From a virus (Duplodnaviria; Heunggongvirae; Uroviricota; Caudoviricetes), in IMG/VR virus record IMGVR_UViG_3300045988_006673, positions 1 to 44,934 of that record: DNA of 44,934 nucleotides. One strand, given 5' to 3'. Every line of letters begins with the position of its first letter. Within the stretch, counting starts at the first letter, position 1. The notes under the pieces were generated by a model. It did no database searches and was not told where the DNA came from. It saw only the letters and a list, made by a program, of their open reading frames with translations. A program made the translations under genes and the position numbers. Below, piece after piece: positions 604 through 32,988 of the stretch.

Positions 604-1020
604 TTACTTTTCCGAGAGTTTCTCCCGGCTATCGGTGTGGTGCTTAACTACGGCTTCTGCCAACCCACTGTACTGGTCAAACAGGTTAGCCAGCGCCTCT
701 TTGCTGAATGGTTCGTCGAATGACCAACCGGTGACAATTTCCACGGCAAGCTGCTTGTTCAGGTCCATAACCCGCCAGCCCTTCTCATCGTTATAGCGCG
801 CCCAGTTATTCAATGCCTCGCACTCTTTATCTAATGGCGCAAGTTCTTCCGTAAGGCGTCGAATTGCCGTTGTGTAGGCGCGGCCTGCGCGAACGCCGGC
901 ATCGCAGTCTGGGCCGATGACTTGCAACCATTCGCCGGAGTCTTTGCCACTTGGAAGAAGGATGGGCATTTTAGTGCCCGCAGCGTGTCGGTCAGCAAAA
1001 TAAAAATCAGAAAGTTTCAT
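604..1020 (-). CDS. Tail assembly chaperone (gpG-like)
   Basis: 138-aa ORF between major tail and tape measure genes; followed by overlapping -1 frame ORF. Confidence 0.55.
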   Translation of the reverse strand: MKLSDFYFADRHAAGTKMPILLPSGKDSGEWLQVIGPDCDAGVRAGRAYTTAIRRLTEELAPLDKECEALNNWARYNDEKGWRVMDLNKQLAVEIVTGWSFDEPFSKEALANLFDQYSGLAEAVVKHHTDSREKLSEK

Positions 1021-1127
1021 TCTTTAATCCTTTGGTTAAGAGGTTACAGGTTAAGGTTGACGCGCCAGACGGGAACCACCCGCTTTTCGTGTGCGACACT
1101 AGGCGCAAACTTATTCTAACACACTAC

Positions 1128-1156
1128 TTGCGCACCCCAATATAATAGGGTACTAT
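1128..1156 (+). promoter_or_regulatory. Class I promoter-like element P1: TTGCGC-N17-TACTAT with conserved spacer ACCCCAATATAATAGGG
   Basis: Sigma70-like -35/-10 at 17-bp spacing, about 30 bp upstream of the 1185 start; near-identical copies at 10837, 12992 and (minus strand) 21657 and 23429. Confidence 0.5.
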
Positions 1157-1184
1157 TCACCTGTAACCTACTGAGGAAACAATT

Positions 1185-1511
1185 ATGCGTAAATTAGTAT
1201 TAGCTCTGGGGTTTATGTCTTTTGCCGCTTTTGGGTCCCCGTGCGAACAGGTATTTAGTGAATCTGTTCTTATGACTTCTGGTGTGCTTGAGAAAGCCGA
1301 CCCTACTATTGTAAAGGCGTTCAAGGACTCTACAGTTCGCGAGTGTGAGGCCGCCGTGGAGGTTGGTAAATCGGGCCTACCCCCGCAAGCCGTAACCTAC
1401 ACAGTGATACGTTCGGTAGAGAAAAACGGAGATGCTTTCTATAGCCTACTGACAGCCACCCGTCTGCAAATGGTAATGACAGGGTGGGCGATGGGCGCAG
1501 AAAGTAAATAG
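1185..1511 (+). CDS. Small secreted protein (Sec signal peptide MRKLVLALGFMSFAAFG), function unknown
   Basis: ATG preceded by GAGGAAAC RBS; hydrophobic N-terminal signal; first gene of plus-strand cassette inside the tail module. Confidence 0.5.
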   Translation: MRKLVLALGFMSFAAFGSPCEQVFSESVLMTSGVLEKADPTIVKAFKDSTVRECEAAVEVGKSGLPPQAVTYTVIRSVEKNGDAFYSLLTATRLQMVMTGWAMGAESK

Positions 1512-1576
1512 TTGCCTTTATTTAAAGGAATCCACTGTGGTTAAATAGGACAAATCCTAAACACGAGGAAGTAAGC

Positions 1577-2707
1577 ATGGCCCAGAAGAAAATAACCGAC
1601 GAGCAGTTACAGGAAGAATTGAACGCCGGGATGAAGAATATCGATATAGCTCGTAAATACGGCATCTCCGACCGCGTTATTCGTATCCGTAAAGCGAAGC
1701 TGGCTAAGAAAGGTGTAGGCCACGGGCGTGACGTCAGTCACCTTGTACCGGACGGCTACAAGATTAAAGGCACGTCGTCGCTGGTTGATGAGTTCGGCAA
1801 CACTAAGTTGCAATGGGTTAAGACCGACACTGACGCCGAACGTCAGGTCGAGTTGATGAAAGCCGTAATTGAAGGCATGAAGTCGGAGATTACACCAGTT
1901 GCACCTGTTAAAGCGACTAGAGCCAAACGCGACGATAAACTACTCAATCTTTATACTGTGTCTGATTTCCATCTCGGTATGCTGGCATGGGCCGACGAGA
2001 GCGGAGATGACTGGGTCATGAAGATTGCAGAAGACCTGTTCTCTCGGTGGTTTGATGCCGCGTTTCAGAAAGCGCCTGACGCCGGAACAGGAGTTATTAA
2101 CCTGCTGGGCGACCTTGCGCACTTCGATAGTCTGGACGCCGTTACCCCCGCAAGTGGTCATGTTCTTGATGCGGACACGCGCTATCAGAAACTGGTACGC
2201 TACATGATTCGTATGGTACGTCGTGTTGTCGATATGGCCCTCGTTAAGCATAAAACTGTTCGCTTGCTTATCGTGCAAGGGAACCACGACGAAAGCGGAA
2301 TGATTTGGTTAGCTGAGATGTTCAGCACGCTATATGACAATGAGCCGCGTGTGTTCGTCGATACGTCTCCAGATGTTTACAAGATGGTGCAACACGGCAA
2401 AACGACATTGTTCTTTCACCACGGGCATAAAGCACGCTTCGACGCTATCGAACCGGTTATGATTGCCAAGTTCCGCAAAGCGTTCGGCGAGAGCGTTTAT
2501 AGCTACGCCCACGTGGGTCACCTGCACCACCAAAAGATTGTAGAAAGCCGTAACATGATTGTTGAGCAACACCGCACTCTCGCGGCTAAAGATGCATATG
2601 CCTCCCGCGGTGGGTGGATGTCGGGCCGCAGTGCAAATGTAATTACTTATAGCGCCGAATATGGCGAGGTCGCACGTTTAACTATTTCACCGGAGATGCT
2701 GGGATGA
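1577..2707 (+). CDS. Calcineurin-like metallophosphoesterase with N-terminal HTH-like region
   Basis: Motifs SDFH, GDLAHFD, GNHDE, HHGH typical of binuclear metallophosphoesterases; N-terminal 50 aa resembles a DNA-binding HTH; RBS CGAGGAAG. Confidence 0.6.
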   Translation: MAQKKITDEQLQEELNAGMKNIDIARKYGISDRVIRIRKAKLAKKGVGHGRDVSHLVPDGYKIKGTSSLVDEFGNTKLQWVKTDTDAERQVELMKAVIEGMKSEITPVAPVKATRAKRDDKLLNLYTVSDFHLGMLAWADESGDDWVMKIAEDLFSRWFDAAFQKAPDAGTGVINLLGDLAHFDSLDAVTPASGHVLDADTRYQKLVRYMIRMVRRVVDMALVKHKTVRLLIVQGNHDESGMIWLAEMFSTLYDNEPRVFVDTSPDVYKMVQHGKTTLFFHHGHKARFDAIEPVMIAKFRKAFGESVYSYAHVGHLHHQKIVESRNMIVEQHRTLAAKDAYASRGGWMSGRSANVITYSAEYGEVARLTISPEMLG

Positions 2708-3192
2708 AAGATATTGTGATTTTCGATTTAGATGGAACACTGGCGGATGGTACTCATCGTTTACATCTGCTGCCGAAAGATAACTACGGCGAAACCTGGG
2801 CGTGGAAGCCTTTTAACATGGCCTGTAAAGATGATGCGCCGATATATGACAACATTCACTTGTGCAACACACTGTGGCATACAGGGATGATCGTAATCAT
2901 CCTTACTGGGCGCAGTGATGATGCTGAGGATGAGACTCGTAAATGGTTGCAAGAAAATAACGTTAAGTTTGACACGCTGATAATGCGCAGCAAACACGAC
3001 AACAGAAAAGACATCGTAATTAAAGAAGAGGTGTTGCGTGCTATCGGGCTGGAGAGAATATTGTGTGCATTCGACGACTCGCCCGTGGTAATAAAGCATT
3101 TCCGCGGCCTCGGTATAACCACGCACGCGGTTACTGAATACGACTGTAACGGGAACTCTACACACTTAAAATCACACGGGAGTGATAAATAA
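2704..3192 (+). CDS. HAD-family phosphatase resembling the 3'-phosphatase domain of T4 polynucleotide kinase
   Basis: IVIFDLDGTLA (DxDGT nucleophile motif), TGR, RKDIVIKEE and DDSPVV blocks line up with remembered T4 Pnk C-terminal domain; start overlaps upstream stop (ATGA). Confidence 0.65.
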   Translation: MKDIVIFDLDGTLADGTHRLHLLPKDNYGETWAWKPFNMACKDDAPIYDNIHLCNTLWHTGMIVIILTGRSDDAEDETRKWLQENNVKFDTLIMRSKHDNRKDIVIKEEVLRAIGLERILCAFDDSPVVIKHFRGLGITTHAVTEYDCNGNSTHLKSHGSDK

Positions 3193-3746
3193 TGGCTAAG
3201 GTAATTATTCTTAATGGCCCGGCGGGCTGCGGGAAAGACACACTTGCTATGGCGCTGGTAGAAAGGGGCTTTGCAAAGGGCGCCGCCAGTTTCAAGAATC
3301 CAATGTTCAATATTGCTATGGCTGCGTTAGGTCCGGATGCTTACCACGAGTTTCTCGACGGCTACGACGACCGGGCCCGGAAAGAAAAGCCAGAGGGTTT
3401 CCTTAATGGGTTGTCTCGGCGTCAGTTCATGATCGCCATTTCTGAGCAATTCATTAAACCGGTATTCGGTGACGATTATTTCGGTAAGTATCTTGCCGGA
3501 AGATTGCCCGACGGCAACGAAGTTTTTGTAGTGTCCGACGGGGGATTCGCCAGTGAAGTTGCCCCTATCGTTGCCGTCGGGCATGACGTGCGAATCGTTC
3601 GCCTTCATCGTGACGGCTATACGTTTGAGGGGGACAGCCGTGGTTATCTGTATGGCGTTGATGGTGTAAAAGATTACGACACCTACATCATACCGGGTGA
3701 CGTTAAATCGAACGTTATAGACATTGCTTTAAAATTAGGTTTGTAA
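3192..3746 (+). CDS. P-loop nucleotide kinase, most similar to T4 gp1 deoxynucleoside monophosphate kinase
   Basis: Walker A GPAGCGKDT; blocks FKNPMFNIAMAALG and SRRQFMIAISEQF resemble gp1 substrate-binding regions; TAATG overlap with upstream gene. Confidence 0.6.
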   Translation: MAKVIILNGPAGCGKDTLAMALVERGFAKGAASFKNPMFNIAMAALGPDAYHEFLDGYDDRARKEKPEGFLNGLSRRQFMIAISEQFIKPVFGDDYFGKYLAGRLPDGNEVFVVSDGGFASEVAPIVAVGHDVRIVRLHRDGYTFEGDSRGYLYGVDGVKDYDTYIIPGDVKSNVIDIALKLGL

Positions 3747-3754
3747 GAAAAAAA

Positions 3755-3780
3755 AAGGCCCCGAAAGGGGCCTTAGTTTT
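3755..3780. terminator. Bidirectional rho-independent terminator (AAGGCCCC-GAAA-GGGGCCTT flanked by A and T runs)
   Basis: Perfect 8-bp GC stem with GAAA loop between convergent genes ending at 3746 (+) and 3779 (-). Confidence 0.7.
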
Positions 3781-4945
3781 ATGCGTAGCTAATACGCTGT
3801 ATTACAATAGAAGATTGATATTGATTGCCTGTGGACTGTCCTTCTATGCTCTGAGTGATTGACTCTGGCCCCCCAATCTCTGGTGTAACCGCCGTAAGTT
3901 CGGCACGTTTCAGGCTGAAAGACATAGCCCCGTTTACCCCCGCCAGAATAGAGTTAATCTCTACCTGCTGTTCGTTGATAAACTTCTGAATCATCGCCAT
4001 GTCGTACAGCTTGCCAGAGATGGAGAAGGTGTTAGCCGCGCGGCTACGCTCCACAAACGCAACGTTAGTGTTGCCGAGTTCGAACTGTGCGGACGCGCTG
4101 TTATCGTTGGTAATGGTCAAACTGTCGCAACGCAACGGCGTAGAGCCGTCAAACACGGAAACGTCAACCGAGGAGAATGGCTCGTCACCAAACGTAACAG
4201 ATGAGAAGTTGGAACCGGTCGGCGGCGTGGTGAGAATCTCCTGACTGCGACCGATGAATGGGAAGCTGCCAGTTACCATCGCGTTAACAGCCTGTTCGAT
4301 GGTAAACCCAGAAACTTCCACGCCTTTGGTTAACGTGTACGCGTCAGTGCCGCCGCACTGGCCTTTGTACCAGGTAAGGATAGAGAACGTCTTACACGTA
4401 TTACCGGTTTCCAGCGTGTCGCCAGTTTTAGCCTTACTAGTTTTTGTCTCGGCGGTCAGGGTGTGTTGGATGCCCGCACCAGTAACAACCGTAGCCGTTA
4501 CTGCAGTAACAATAAATGGTTTTGCGTTATCGCCTGTTAAATCGGTAAACGCAATCAGGTCGCCTACCCCAACTCCGTCAGTGATAAAGCTGCCGGTGGC
4601 ACGGGTAAAGGTCTTGCCTGCAGGCGCGACGGTAATTGATAGCCCGGTCAGAGAACTACCGGATTGCCATGTAGAGCCTAAAGCACCCGCCAGCCAGTCG
4701 TCCTGGCTTTTCGAGCTAAGCTCAATAGCGTATTCTCCGCTAACCTGCTTGTTACCGGTGCGGATTGACGTAGTTTCACGGCTGCCGTCCAGTTCGTTGG
4801 AGGTCAGCGTGTCGCGGGTAATGGCAGGAACGCCACCTGTGTTACGCAATGGCGCCCAGACCGGGTTAGTCGGTGTTACGCCAGGGGTAGTTTCTGCCAC
4901 ATAGAATTGCGCAGTATTCGCGCCCTTAAAAGGAGTTGTAGCCAT
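3779..4945 (-). CDS. Major tail (tube) protein, putative, possibly with C-terminal Ig-like extension
   Basis: Position immediately upstream (in transcription) of the chaperone and tape measure genes; ATG at 4945 with AAGAGG RBS; Thr/Gly/Ser-rich. Confidence 0.55.
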   Translation of the reverse strand: MATTPFKGANTAQFYVAETTPGVTPTNPVWAPLRNTGGVPAITRDTLTSNELDGSRETTSIRTGNKQVSGEYAIELSSKSQDDWLAGALGSTWQSGSSLTGLSITVAPAGKTFTRATGSFITDGVGVGDLIAFTDLTGDNAKPFIVTAVTATVVTGAGIQHTLTAETKTSKAKTGDTLETGNTCKTFSILTWYKGQCGGTDAYTLTKGVEVSGFTIEQAVNAMVTGSFPFIGRSQEILTTPPTGSNFSSVTFGDEPFSSVDVSVFDGSTPLRCDSLTITNDNSASAQFELGNTNVAFVERSRAANTFSISGKLYDMAMIQKFINEQQVEINSILAGVNGAMSFSLKRAELTAVTPEIGGPESITQSIEGQSTGNQYQSSIVIQRISYA

Positions 4946-4947
4946 AT

Positions 4948-5364
4948 TCACAGCCTCTTGGTGAATGCAATAAAGTTAATTGACAATGGTCGTTTGGCCC
5001 ATCCGTTTTCTACAATCAGCGGCCCCAGGCTAACCGATTGAACCTCGGCGCAGATGTCGTTACGAGAAAATGACTTACCTGCTTTGAATGCCGTGTTAAG
5101 TAAGTCTGCCATTTTATTGATTGGCGCGCTACCTTTCACCGATGCGTAGTTAATGTCGACCTGATAAACACCAGCGCGTTGTTCCGTGAAGAACAAATCT
5201 GCTTGCTCGGTATCCGCCAGTAACATGTAACTTGCCAGATATGGCGTATCGGTTGACGTCGGCGCGTCGATGTTTTCAAGCGCGACCTTGATGCCGTTGG
5301 CGGTTCCGAAGGCTACCAGCGGAACATCGAACGCTTTTGTTAAGTCCTCAAAGTAGCCCATCAT
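4948..5364 (-). CDS. Tail terminator / tail completion protein, putative
   Basis: 138-aa ORF immediately before major tail gene in operon order. Confidence 0.4.
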   Translation of the reverse strand: MMGYFEDLTKAFDVPLVAFGTANGIKVALENIDAPTSTDTPYLASYMLLADTEQADLFFTEQRAGVYQVDINYASVKGSAPINKMADLLNTAFKAGKSFSRNDICAEVQSVSLGPLIVENGWAKRPLSINFIAFTKRL

Positions 5365-30001: not shown

Positions 30002-30170
30002 ACTAAGGGTCGAAAATAATGTTTTTCTGTAGGCACGTTTATCGCTATATGAAACCGCTTCCGTGGTACGCAGATGAGTACCGGGCCGGGTACAGGCATG
30101 TGTGGATTTGCCGTGATTGTATGAAAATAAGATTAAGCGAAACGAAGGCACTGGATTTAAGGAAAAAGAA

Positions 30171-32351
30171 ATGAGCTACTTATACCTGGACTTTGAAACA
30201 TTCTCTGATGCCGATTTAAAGAAAGTCGGCTCCTACGCTTACGCCGAACATCCATCCACCGAAGTGCTCATCTGCGCATACGCTTTTGACGACGAACCTG
30301 TTCAGGTGTGGGATTGCACTGACGGCAGCGACATGCCAGGCGATTTGCACCGCGCACTTCGCCGCCTGGTGAAGCCTAACAGCCGCATCAAGATGGTATG
30401 GCACAACGGTTCAATGTTCGACAGGCTCATCATGAAACACTGCTGGGGCTTTGATATTCCGGTAAGCAACACCATTGATACGATGATTTGGGCTTTTCGT
30501 CACGCGCTGCCGGGTTCTCTTGATGCGTTGTGTGGGGTGCTGGGTGTGTCGGCAGACAACGCGAAAGATAAACGAGGCAAGGCGCTGATTCAGCGTTTTT
30601 CTAAACCGACGCCGAAGAACTACAAAATTCGCCGTTACACTGCTGAAACCCACCCTGACGAATGGGTGCTGTTCATCAAGTACGCCGTGAGTGACATTAC
30701 TGCGATGCGTGAAGTCTTCAATAAGCTGCCGCGTTGGGGTAACTCTGAGTTTGAAGACCGTGTACTGGAACTTGACCAGTTAATCAACGACCGCGGGTTT
30801 AAGGTCGACGTGGCACTGGCGGAAGCCGCGATTGAAGCCGTGGAGAAACACAAAGCACAGTTACAGGAAGAAGCCCAACGTAAATACGGCGGCTCGCTTA
30901 CTGGAAAGGACTTTCTGCCGATTCTACGTGAACTTGCCCCCGCGCACCGCATCCACAATGCGCAGAAGTCGACGCTGAATGACCTGTTGGCGGACGATGA
31001 TTTACCGGACGACGCCCGCACGATTATCGAAATGCGCCTCGGGGCTGCATCCACCGCGTCAACGAAATATAACCCGCTGCTCTTGGGCCGCTCTGCGGAC
31101 GACCGACGTCGCGGTTGCATCCAGTACGGTGGGGCTAAGCGTACGTTGCGGTTTGCTGGTAAAGGATTCCAGCCGCAGAACCTGGCGCGCGGGTACTATC
31201 ACGACGATGAACTGGATAAAGGCGTTTCTGCGTTACTTAAGGGCCGCGCCCATCGCCGTTTCGATGTAGCCAAGCTAACGGCCTCGACGGTTCGTAGCTG
31301 CATCATACCGGAAGCAGGGCATAAGTTTGTCGTTGCCGATTACTCGAACGTCGAAGGCCGCGGTTTGGCATGGCTGGCGGGAGAAGAAACCGCGCTCGAT
31401 ACGTTCCGCGCCGGGCTGGACATTTACTGTGTAACCGCGGGTAAGATGTTCGGCATGGAACCGGATTACATTAAGAAAGAACGTAAAGACCTACGCCAGA
31501 TTGGTAAAGCCTGTGAACTGGGCCTAGGCTACGCCGGGGGTGTCGGCGCGTTCGTTCAGTTTGCTAAGAACCTCGGACTTGACCTTGTCGATATGGCTAA
31601 AACAATGGATGGGACATTCCCTGACCATATATGGGCAGCTACCGCACGCGGGTATGAGTGGGCGCGTATTCAGGAGGCAAAGCGACCACCGCGCCCCGGT
31701 GAAAAGGACGACAGACCGTCGTATATTCTTGATAAGAAAGTGTGGCGTACCTGTGACGCTATCAAGCGCATGTGGCGCGAGTCTCACCCAGAAACCGTAG
31801 CTTTCTGGCGGGGTATTGAAGACGCAGCTATGGCCGCCATCCGCAACCCAGGTAAAGAGTTCACCGCAGGGCCGCGCGGCGTTAAGTTTTCGCGTAACGT
31901 AGAGACAGACAACAACGGCAACAAAGTCGCGGGCTGGTGGTTGCGCATGACGTTGCCGTCGGGTCGCGTTATGTCATACCCGGGCGTCGGGTTAAGCGTG
32001 TCGAAAGAAACAGACGAAGATGGAAAAGTGTCTACTAACGTGCGCATCAAGTACCAGGGGGAGAATCAGCTAACCCGCAAGTGGGGCTTCCAGTACACCT
32101 ACTCCGGTAAACTGGTGGAAAACTGCACCCAGGCATTGTGCCGTGATTTGCTGGCTAACGCGCTGCTGAACGTAGAAGCTAACGGCTACCCGATTGTACT
32201 TCATGTTCACGATGAGATTATATGCGAGACACCAGATTTACCGGAATACAATGTGGCTGAGCTGGAAAAATTAATGTGTGAATTACCGGAATGGGCCGAG
32301 GGGTTCCCTCTTGTGGCGGAAGGTGCGGAGATGAAGCGTTATGCTAAGTAA
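30171..32351 (+). CDS. Family A DNA polymerase with 3'-5' exonuclease domain
   Basis: Exo I motif YLDFETFS near N-terminus; 726 aa from ATG 30171 (track ORF extends to 30117). Confidence 0.8.
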   Translation: MSYLYLDFETFSDADLKKVGSYAYAEHPSTEVLICAYAFDDEPVQVWDCTDGSDMPGDLHRALRRLVKPNSRIKMVWHNGSMFDRLIMKHCWGFDIPVSNTIDTMIWAFRHALPGSLDALCGVLGVSADNAKDKRGKALIQRFSKPTPKNYKIRRYTAETHPDEWVLFIKYAVSDITAMREVFNKLPRWGNSEFEDRVLELDQLINDRGFKVDVALAEAAIEAVEKHKAQLQEEAQRKYGGSLTGKDFLPILRELAPAHRIHNAQKSTLNDLLADDDLPDDARTIIEMRLGAASTASTKYNPLLLGRSADDRRRGCIQYGGAKRTLRFAGKGFQPQNLARGYYHDDELDKGVSALLKGRAHRRFDVAKLTASTVRSCIIPEAGHKFVVADYSNVEGRGLAWLAGEETALDTFRAGLDIYCVTAGKMFGMEPDYIKKERKDLRQIGKACELGLGYAGGVGAFVQFAKNLGLDLVDMAKTMDGTFPDHIWAATARGYEWARIQEAKRPPRPGEKDDRPSYILDKKVWRTCDAIKRMWRESHPETVAFWRGIEDAAMAAIRNPGKEFTAGPRGVKFSRNVETDNNGNKVAGWWLRMTLPSGRVMSYPGVGLSVSKETDEDGKVSTNVRIKYQGENQLTRKWGFQYTYSGKLVENCTQALCRDLLANALLNVEANGYPIVLHVHDEIICETPDLPEYNVAELEKLMCELPEWAEGFPLVAEGAEMKRYAK

Positions 32352-32558: not shown

Positions 32559-32707
32559 CAATGTTTGTATTTTGGACAACAGTAACCATGCTAGCACTGT
32601 TATTCGGTGCGGGAATAGCTGCGATGTTCTGTTACGGCCTGTTCTTTAAGTTTGTTGGCGTTGCCGTTCTCGGAGGGGCGTTTATAACTTGGGTTCTGCG
32701 CTCATGA
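32555..32707 (+). CDS. Micro-ORF, 50-aa membrane peptide
   Basis: ATGA overlap with upstream micro-ORF and with VRR-NUC start; two hydrophobic segments. Confidence 0.3.
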   Translation: MTMFVFWTTVTMLALLFGAGIAAMFCYGLFFKFVGVAVLGGAFITWVLRS

Positions 32708-32988
32708 CCCCGGAAGGCAAGATTCAGAAATACGCAAAAGAGCGATTCGAGGCCATTGGTGGCCTCGTTCGCAAATTGTCATACGAAAATAGAGCAGGCG
32801 CTCCTGACCTGCTGGTAATTCTCCCCGGCGGCATCGTCTGGTTCGTCGAGGTTAAGAAAGACGAAAACACGAAGCCGGACCCGCACCAGTTACGGGAGCA
32901 TGAGCGGATGCGTAAACGTGGTGCAAATGTTTTTGTCGTTGGTTCGATAAAACAGATTGACGACCTAATAGCGAACTATTATAGTTAG
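32704..32988 (+). CDS. VRR-NUC domain nuclease
   Basis: PDLLVILPGGIVWFVEVK carries the PD-(D/E)xK signature in the arrangement typical of VRR-NUC proteins. Confidence 0.6.
   Translation: MTPEGKIQKYAKERFEAIGGLVRKLSYENRAGAPDLLVILPGGIVWFVEVKKDENTKPDPHQLREHERMRKRGANVFVVGSIKQIDDLIANYYS
32957..32985 (+). promoter_or_regulatory. Class II promoter-like element: TTGACG-N17-TATAGT
   Basis: Hexamers at 17-bp spacing inside the 3' end of the VRR-NUC gene; shares CTATTATAGT with other class II sites. Confidence 0.4.

Follow-up and report, generated by a model that had tools for sequence, protein, structure and literature searches.

A probable composite plus-strand island with a candidate deoxynucleotide-salvage pair in the tail operon of a Guernseyvirinae phage

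The tail operon of the virus record IMGVR_UViG_3300045988_006673 contains a block of four plus-strand genes that encode a small predicted secreted protein (ORF1, for open reading frame 1), a metallophosphoesterase (MPE) fused to a helix-turn-helix (HTH) domain, a stand-alone HAD phosphatase of the PNKP type, and a deoxynucleoside monophosphate (dNMP) kinase, here called DNK. The record was analyzed over its full length of 44,934 nucleotides (nt), which is referred to below as the window. An original prediction, made from the sequence, offered three functions for the block: Pnk-style healing of nucleic-acid ends, salvage of degraded host DNA to supply deoxynucleoside triphosphates (dNTPs), and degradation of nucleotide second messengers. 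Our analysis favors, with a probability of roughly 0.6, a composite and lineage-conserved plus-strand island that splits the Guernseyvirinae tail operon, rather than one repair system, in which the HAD-DNK pair serves dNMP salvage. By analogy with characterized homologs, salvage appears to be the best supported of the three proposed functions.

The island would consist of three layers. The first is a variable moron slot, occupied here by the small predicted secreted protein, the second is a core gene for the HTH-fused binuclear MPE with predicted DNA-binding ability, and the third is an accessory, translationally coupled pair formed by the PNKP-like HAD phosphatase and the DNK. In the proposed pathway, the DNK would use ATP to convert free dAMP, dGMP, dCMP, and dTMP to deoxynucleoside diphosphates (dNDPs), a reaction seen in a 52%-identical homolog. 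Host nucleoside diphosphate kinase (NDK) converts dNDPs to dNTPs. The dNMPs would derive from host DNA cut by the T7-like endonuclease and exonuclease set of the phage, by analogy with T7 genes 3, 6, and 1.7. The HAD enzyme may act at the level of nucleotides, stripping the 3'-phosphates of 3'-dNMPs, pdNp, or DNA fragments to feed the 5'-dNMP pool, or, within the same view, it may trim dNMP pools; it would not heal RNA ends. As a side effect, the DNK would expose the phage to sensing by the Kongming (KomABC) defense.

Distribution and conservation of the block

The block region gave megablast matches to 240 phage records, nearly all of them Guernseyvirinae (Kagunavirus and relatives) of Escherichia or Salmonella, with the best match to Escherichia phage L AB-2017 at 94%. 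The remainder of the window has its matches in this group too, and by this similarity the window can be regarded as a Kagunavirus genome. A tblastn search of 50,697 phage records returned matches to the MPE in 2,054 records, to the HAD protein in 2,245, and to the kinase in 1,535. At an identity of at least 80%, which approximates the close Guernseyvirinae relatives, these numbers fall to 292, 57, and 53, respectively. The HAD-kinase pair is present in roughly one in five close relatives and the HTH-MPE occupies the slot throughout the Guernseyvirinae. In Bas73 (Kagunavirus), SETP13, and LDW16 (Jerseyvirus), the MPE gene lies in the same slot, and small ORFs or an HNH gene replace the HAD-DNK pair. 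The block is read as composite because the MPE outnumbers its two partners among close relatives, because relatives swap the HAD-DNK pair for other genes, and because the content of the ORF1 slot varies. Natural variants without the pair, such as Bas73, are ready-made controls for functional work.

The order MPE-HAD-DNK recurs in the Drexlerviridae, including Rao1 and Webervirus KingDDD, just upstream of the lysis cassette. The genes gp56, gp57, and gp58 of Rao1 are the same three genes as the trio in the window, in the same order and with the same sizes, and the encoded proteins are 45% (MPE), 53% (HAD), and 52% (kinase) identical to those of the window, with the catalytic K15 of the kinase kept. 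The Rao1 trio has short gaps between its genes and escaper mutations imply a promoter region specific to gp58, whereas the trio in the window is antisense within a tail operon, has overlapping genes, and is preceded by an extra moron. According to a 2026 study, 508 of 522 Drexlerviridae have a persistent exonuclease-holin-endolysin-spanin module, whose exonuclease, the PHROG 704 "DNA repair exonuclease", is a core gene at the same frequency (PMC13164509). The architecture of this protein, an HTH plus an MPE, is that of the MPE in the window, but its gene sits in the lysis module rather than in the tail module. In Drexlerviridae without a stand-alone SH3 gene, the position immediately behind the exonuclease gene is most often taken by genes annotated as "polynucleotide kinase" and "dNMP kinase", which the authors of that study interpret as an extension of nucleotide supply (PMC13164509).

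In two large phage families, the Guernseyvirinae and the Drexlerviridae, the block is common and has been annotated before. Dozens of GenBank records carry annotations for it, hundreds of phage records contain it or at least its core, its gene order is in print for the Drexlerviridae (PMC13164509), and the kinase family has been studied biochemically and in vivo. The description of the arrangement as unusual in the original prediction therefore does not stand. The practical value of the present analysis is correct annotation. GenBank often labels the HAD gene "polynucleotide kinase", and this label is misleading, as is "ATPase/RFC/phosphomevalonate kinase".

The HAD gene always lies directly upstream of the DNK gene in this lineage. 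Outside the close relatives, the three genes are found in several other contexts. The MPE gene occurs alone in other lineages, beside lysis genes, beside thyX and a dCMP deaminase gene, or beside a DNA ligase gene. Distant homologs of the DNK adjoin PolA, dCMP deaminase, DNA ligase, or PhoH. In a T7-like phage, the DNK gene is located between the ligase gene and gene 2.5, which we take to be the position of the T7 nucleotide kinase gene 1.7.

The dNMP kinase and the HAD phosphatase

The kinase carries the P-loop GPAGCGK15DT, of which G14, K15, and D16 are invariant in 25 homologs, and it matches PHROG 139, "deoxynucleoside monophosphate kinase", with E 7e-45. Pfam, NCBIfam, and PDB sequence searches detected the P-loop alone. 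HMMER searches of PDB sequences, with the single sequence and with the 25-sequence alignment, returned only AAA+ ATPase P-loops and did not reach 1DEK, the T4 dNMP kinase; the link to T4 gp1 therefore needed a structure model. An AlphaFold2 (AF2) model built from the alignment of the 25 diverse homologs has a predicted local distance difference test score (pLDDT) of 94. The top Foldseek match of this model is 1DEK (E 1.6e-5, TMq 0.65), followed by phosphomevalonate kinases and adenylate-kinase-like enzymes, and T4 Pnk is missing from the top 50 matches. T4 gp1 and T5 Dnk have the GKD(T) P-loop and the NMP-kinase-like fold in common with the kinase in the window, although they are longer (241-250 versus 184 residues) and the identity is about 16-18%. 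An hhalign comparison with T5 Dnk gave 95% probability over only 48 columns.

Functional information is available for close homologs of this kinase. R1DNK, the gp58 protein of Rao1, aligns with the window kinase over its full length (E 7e-63), and the kinases of the Webervirus phages VAC4 and VAC7 are about 43% identical to it. R1DNK phosphorylates dAMP, dGMP, dCMP, and dTMP with ATP to dNDPs (10.1101/2024.12.20.629578). It is also the phage factor exploited by the KomABC (Kongming) defense to make a dITP signal, and its K15A variant no longer triggers Kongming toxicity (10.1101/2024.12.20.629578). The DNKs of Webervirus VAC2 and phage KarlJaspers trigger Kongming as well (10.1101/2024.12.20.629578), and the motifs GKDT, SDGGF, and GDSR of the window kinase are present in both sequences. 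Deletion of dnk in Rao1 moderately lowers dATP during infection (10.1101/2024.12.20.629578). The kinase in the window is a DNK-family dNMP kinase, as had been predicted from its resemblance to T4 gp1, and the assays on its 52%-identical homolog support this as its probable function. Homology of the DNK would predict Kongming sensitivity of the phage, which is relevant to the use of Kagunavirus phages against K1 and urinary tract infection (UTI) strains of E. coli.

The HAD protein matches PF25109 (HAD_PNKP) with E 1e-19 and phrog_415 with E 3e-66. BLASTP aligns it with the phosphatase domain of T-even Pnk over the whole domain (E 7e-12), and Pnkp1 and T4 Pnk are among its matches in PDB sequences. 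The motifs D8xD10GT, the GR arginine (R70), the D-x-RKD-x-V-KEE block (RKDxVIKEE, with D99-R-K101-D), and D124D125 are all kept between T4 Pnk (PseT) and the HAD protein, which shares D8, D10, R70, D99, K102, D124, and D125 with T-even Pnk. By these criteria of sequence, the protein is a bona fide PNKP-family phosphatase. The profile searches suggested by the original prediction thus placed both enzymes in the expected families, PF25109 and phrog_415 for the HAD protein and phrog_139 for the kinase, and not in unrelated ones.

Several features, however, distinguish the HAD protein from the corresponding part of T4 Pnk. It has no fused or Pnk-like kinase, it belongs to PHROG 415 and not to PHROG 505, and it has about 15-18 additional residues behind DxDGT, in the cap region, an insert that is absent from T-even Pnk and common to T5 Dmp. 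The insert lies within an N-terminal third that resembles the Dmp proteins of T5 (E 7e-4) and VPG01 (E 9e-6), both validated against Kongming, in an alignment confined to the first 48-74 residues. T5 Dmp is a 5'-deoxyribonucleotidase with anti-Kongming activity; it has DxDGT, an HR motif, and a similar insert, and it co-occurs with a DNK. It differs in its size of 244 residues, in a long C-terminal extension (the HAD protein has 162 residues and its likeness to T5 Dmp is limited to the first 50-75), and in its pre-early expression from the T5 terminal repeat. The validated "Dmp" of Bas26 was considered as a protein of the same kind as this HAD and rejected, as it is a T5-type Dmp and says nothing direct about the HAD in the window.

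A stand-alone phrog_415 HAD that is 39% identical to that of the window is also present in the T4-like Krischvirus RB49 (locus L025, 1841-3474), whose gene neighborhood was read from an unannotated assembly by ORF calling and PHROG scans. The RB49 gene starts 4 nt before the stop codon of nrdB. A few small ORFs separate it from two genes farther downstream, the first for an endonuclease (phrog_1111), read from its position as denA-like, and the second of the RNA ligase 1 type (phrog_562). The RB49 record contains a second match to the HAD protein, which is probably pseT (Pnk). The Dmp-like N-terminal third with its insert and the nucleotide-metabolism neighborhood in RB49 argue that the stand-alone HAD is not simply half a Pnk.

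These data bear on the proposal that the block is a split Pnk-like system, in which the HAD would be the 3'-phosphatase, the P-loop protein the 5'-OH kinase, and the MPE the enzyme that opens 2',3'-cyclic phosphates, together mending tRNA or DNA breaks left by abortive infection. The membership of the HAD in the PNKP family and its frequent GenBank label fit such a system. In bacterial Pnkp, a calcineurin-type MPE serves as the 2',3'-phosphatase, which likewise counts in favor of it. However, the kinase profile aligns with T-even Pnk over only the 23 columns of the P-loop, its fold is gp1-like, and its 52%-identical homolog phosphorylates free dNMPs. The large ORFs of the window and the annotation of Bas73 showed no ligase, ribonucleotide reductase (RNR), or thymidylate synthase, the small ORFs having been scanned in part. 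RB49 would, if the second match is indeed a Pnk, contain both a phrog_415 HAD in its nrd cluster and a complete Pnk, and the two would not be redundant. End healing is accordingly judged highly improbable.

A second alternative is counter-defense, in which the HAD, as a deoxynucleotide phosphatase of the Dmp type, would lower dAMP and thereby dampen the Kongming response provoked by the DNK, and the MPE, independently or additionally, would degrade nucleotide second messengers. The Dmp-like N-terminal third with its insert is consistent with this role, as are the co-occurrence of T5-type Dmps with DNKs (10.1101/2024.12.20.629578) and the invariable position of the HAD gene directly upstream of the DNK gene. 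Rao1 nevertheless encodes gp57, the HAD ortholog, and is fully Kongming-sensitive, and providing T5 Dmp in trans rescues it (10.1101/2024.12.20.629578). By analogy, this argues against an effective 5'-dAMPase role of the HAD in vivo. The HAD as a whole is nearer to the Pnk phosphatase than to Dmp, and a PADLOC search of the block proteins gave no match and no anti-defense signal. The MPE gene belongs to the core and encodes an HTH, predicted to bind DNA, which is atypical of an accessory anti-defense gene and speaks against the degradation of second messengers put forward in the original prediction. We regard counter-defense as rather improbable.

The HTH-metallophosphoesterase and the ORF1 slot

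The N-terminus of the MPE protein (about residues 5-45) is an HTH resembling those of LuxR and sigma-70 region 4. It is followed by a linker of a beta-hairpin and a helix and by a binuclear MPE core (about residues 119-370). Sigma70_r4_2 is matched with E 1.5e-6 in two homologs and the match to FixJ is weak, while the Pfam matches to Metallophos, Metallophos_2, and GerE all fall under the gathering threshold. The protein matches phrog_704, "DNA repair exonuclease", from end to end with E 8e-166, and "exonuclease" in this name is an annotation only. None of the five metal-binding motifs (DxH, GD, GNHD, H, and GHxH) varies in homologs down to 25-30% identity; the residues concerned are D130/H132, G178/D179, G235/N236/H237/D238, H282-284, and G314/H315/H317. 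The predicted fusion of an HTH to a binuclear MPE is thereby borne out, and the enzyme, judged by its motifs, is catalytically intact and probably DNA-bound.

Two loops of the MPE are strictly conserved and specific to the family, VTPASGHxLDxDxRY (residues 185-197) and KDAYAxxGGW (residues 336-351). They are the only segments of the model with pLDDT below 50, and they may be flexible, family-specific sites for the binding of a substrate or a partner. Literature searches found no functional or biochemical studies of the MPE family (PHROG 704). Campylobacter phage CP30A (locus L008, 3652-5951) encodes an MPE that lacks the HTH, with 28% identity and a match that begins at residue 65. Its gene lies directly 3' of a DNA ligase gene, the sole context seen that ties the MPE family to DNA end metabolism.

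The MPE would have a direct part in nucleotide supply if the trio formed an integrated conveyor, in which a DNA-bound MPE exonuclease degrades host DNA, the HAD removes 3'-phosphates, and the DNK phosphorylates the released 5'-dNMPs. However, the MPE occurs without the HAD-DNK pair in most Guernseyvirinae and many Drexlerviridae, and many other phages have the DNK but neither partner. In its fold, the MPE is about as similar to phosphodiesterases (Rv0805, MJ0936) and LpxH as to nucleases, and a phrog_69 exonuclease is encoded separately in the window. An integrated conveyor is therefore an unlikely arrangement. Similarly tentative is the more specific proposal that the phrog_415 HAD is a nucleotide-level phosphatase, acting on 3'-dNMPs and pdNp or in a Dmp-like manner, which forms with the HTH-MPE either a dedicated conveyor that turns host DNA into dNTPs or a buffer against Kongming. 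If this were true, it would give a function to the PHROG 704 core gene, which is found in more than 2,000 sequenced phages.

Several points weigh against the composite island with a salvage pair as proposed here. The deletion of dnk in Rao1 had no measurable laboratory fitness cost (10.1101/2024.12.20.629578), so that salvage may be dispensable or condition-dependent. The HAD is closest overall to the 3'-phosphatase domain of Pnk, and it could possibly act on nucleic-acid ends. The fold search assigns the MPE to no subfamily, and its link to, or independence from, the HAD-DNK pair is deduced from gene distribution. Finally, the check for ligase, RNR, and thymidylate synthase genes covered the larger ORFs and the annotation of one relative.

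ORF1 encodes a protein of 108 residues with an N-terminal Sec-type signal sequence, MRKLVLALGFMSFAAFG followed by SP, and no lipobox, as read by eye. It matches phrog_14165, a family without an assigned function, with E 1e-55, and gave no match in Pfam, NCBIfam, or PADLOC; NCBIfam was uninformative for the other three proteins as well. A signal-peptide protein of this type and length, also phrog_14165, is present in the slot in L AB-2017 and Bas73. In many other relatives, including EM1, K1G, and LDW16, the slot holds a gene for a "superinfection immunity" protein of 59-63 residues (phrog_1039). On the basis of these sequences, the ORF1 position appears to be a swappable moron slot.

Locus layout, regulatory signals, and replication genes

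The coordinates of the block and its flanks are given in Table 1. The ORF calls and the Pfam matches of the flanking genes agree with the predicted arrangement, in which the four plus-strand genes are antisense to the tail genes and lie between the gene for the tail assembly chaperone and that for the tail tube protein. The original prediction regarded all four genes as one translationally coupled unit. The MPE and HAD genes overlap in ATGA and the HAD and kinase genes overlap in TAATG, as expected of coupling, but the spacer between ORF1 and the MPE gene is 65 nt long, and coupling is therefore retained for only three of the four genes. This spacer holds an AT-rich 14-nt palindrome, CCTTTATTTAAAGG, at 1515-1528, which is probably not a terminator because it has no T-run.

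Table 1. Features of the four-gene block, its flanks, and the equivalent of ORF1 in relatives
Feature	Position	Strand	Remarks
ORF1	1185..1511	+	Shine-Dalgarno-like motif 5' of start
HTH-metallophosphoesterase (MPE), 376 aa	1577..2707	+	Shine-Dalgarno-like motif 5' of start
Stand-alone PNKP-type HAD phosphatase, 162 aa	2704..3192	+	Shine-Dalgarno-like motif 5' of start
DNK, gp1-like deoxynucleoside monophosphate kinase, 184 aa	3192..3746	+	Shine-Dalgarno-like motif 5' of start
Tail assembly chaperone (flank)	604..1020	-	PF08748 Phage_TAC_4 E 1e-8; phrog_15027 E 1e-65
Tail tube (major tail) protein (flank)	3779..4951	-	PF18906 Phage_tube_2 E 7e-38
Divergent intergenic region, 164 bp, conserved	1021..1184		93% column identity in four relatives
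Bidirectional intrinsic terminator hairpin, AAGGCCCC-GAAA-GGGGCCTT	3755..3774	both	Terminator scan
Slot-equivalent gene of ORF1 in relatives	locus L001 6088-6279; locus L019 2259-2438		"Superinfection immunity" type

The hairpin downstream of the kinase gene consists of a stem of 8 bp, six of them GC, and a GAAA loop. It is called as a terminator on both strands, as had been predicted, because a run of nine A residues lies upstream and a T-rich run downstream. Its score is stronger on the minus strand, where the T-run is perfect, than on the plus strand, where the T-run is interrupted. The tail operon is thus split by an antisense island with a strong minus-strand terminator directly 3' of the tail tube gene, and the downstream chaperone, tape-measure, and distal tail genes would need a promoter of their own.

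The predicted promoter P1 was not recovered. A sigma-70 scan found no plus-strand promoter within 1128-1160, no plus-strand site passed anywhere in the intergenic region 1021-1184, and the proposed element TTGCGC-17-TACTAT matches the consensus at 7 of 12 positions. A perfect TATAAT is present at 1141-1146 on the plus strand with a poor -35 element, as read by eye. On the minus strand, the scan found a promoter-like site at 1167..1139 (GTTACA-17-TATATT, 9 of 12 positions). The intergenic region keeps its 93% identity in the four relatives even with a different downstream gene, and divergent regulation from this region is plausible because of this conservation.

The replication module of the window is T7-like and comprises a helicase-primase, the phrog_69 exonuclease, a gp2.5-like single-stranded DNA-binding protein (SSB), a family A polymerase (PolA), and an endonuclease. 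The DNA polymerase ORF (30117-32351, 744 residues, TTG start) has an internal match to the endonuclease family phrog_93 at residues 463-555. The same family is matched by a separate ORF of 99 residues downstream of the polymerase (32689-32988), and the polymerase is annotated in several pieces in some relatives. The polymerase may carry an insertion of the homing-endonuclease or intein type.

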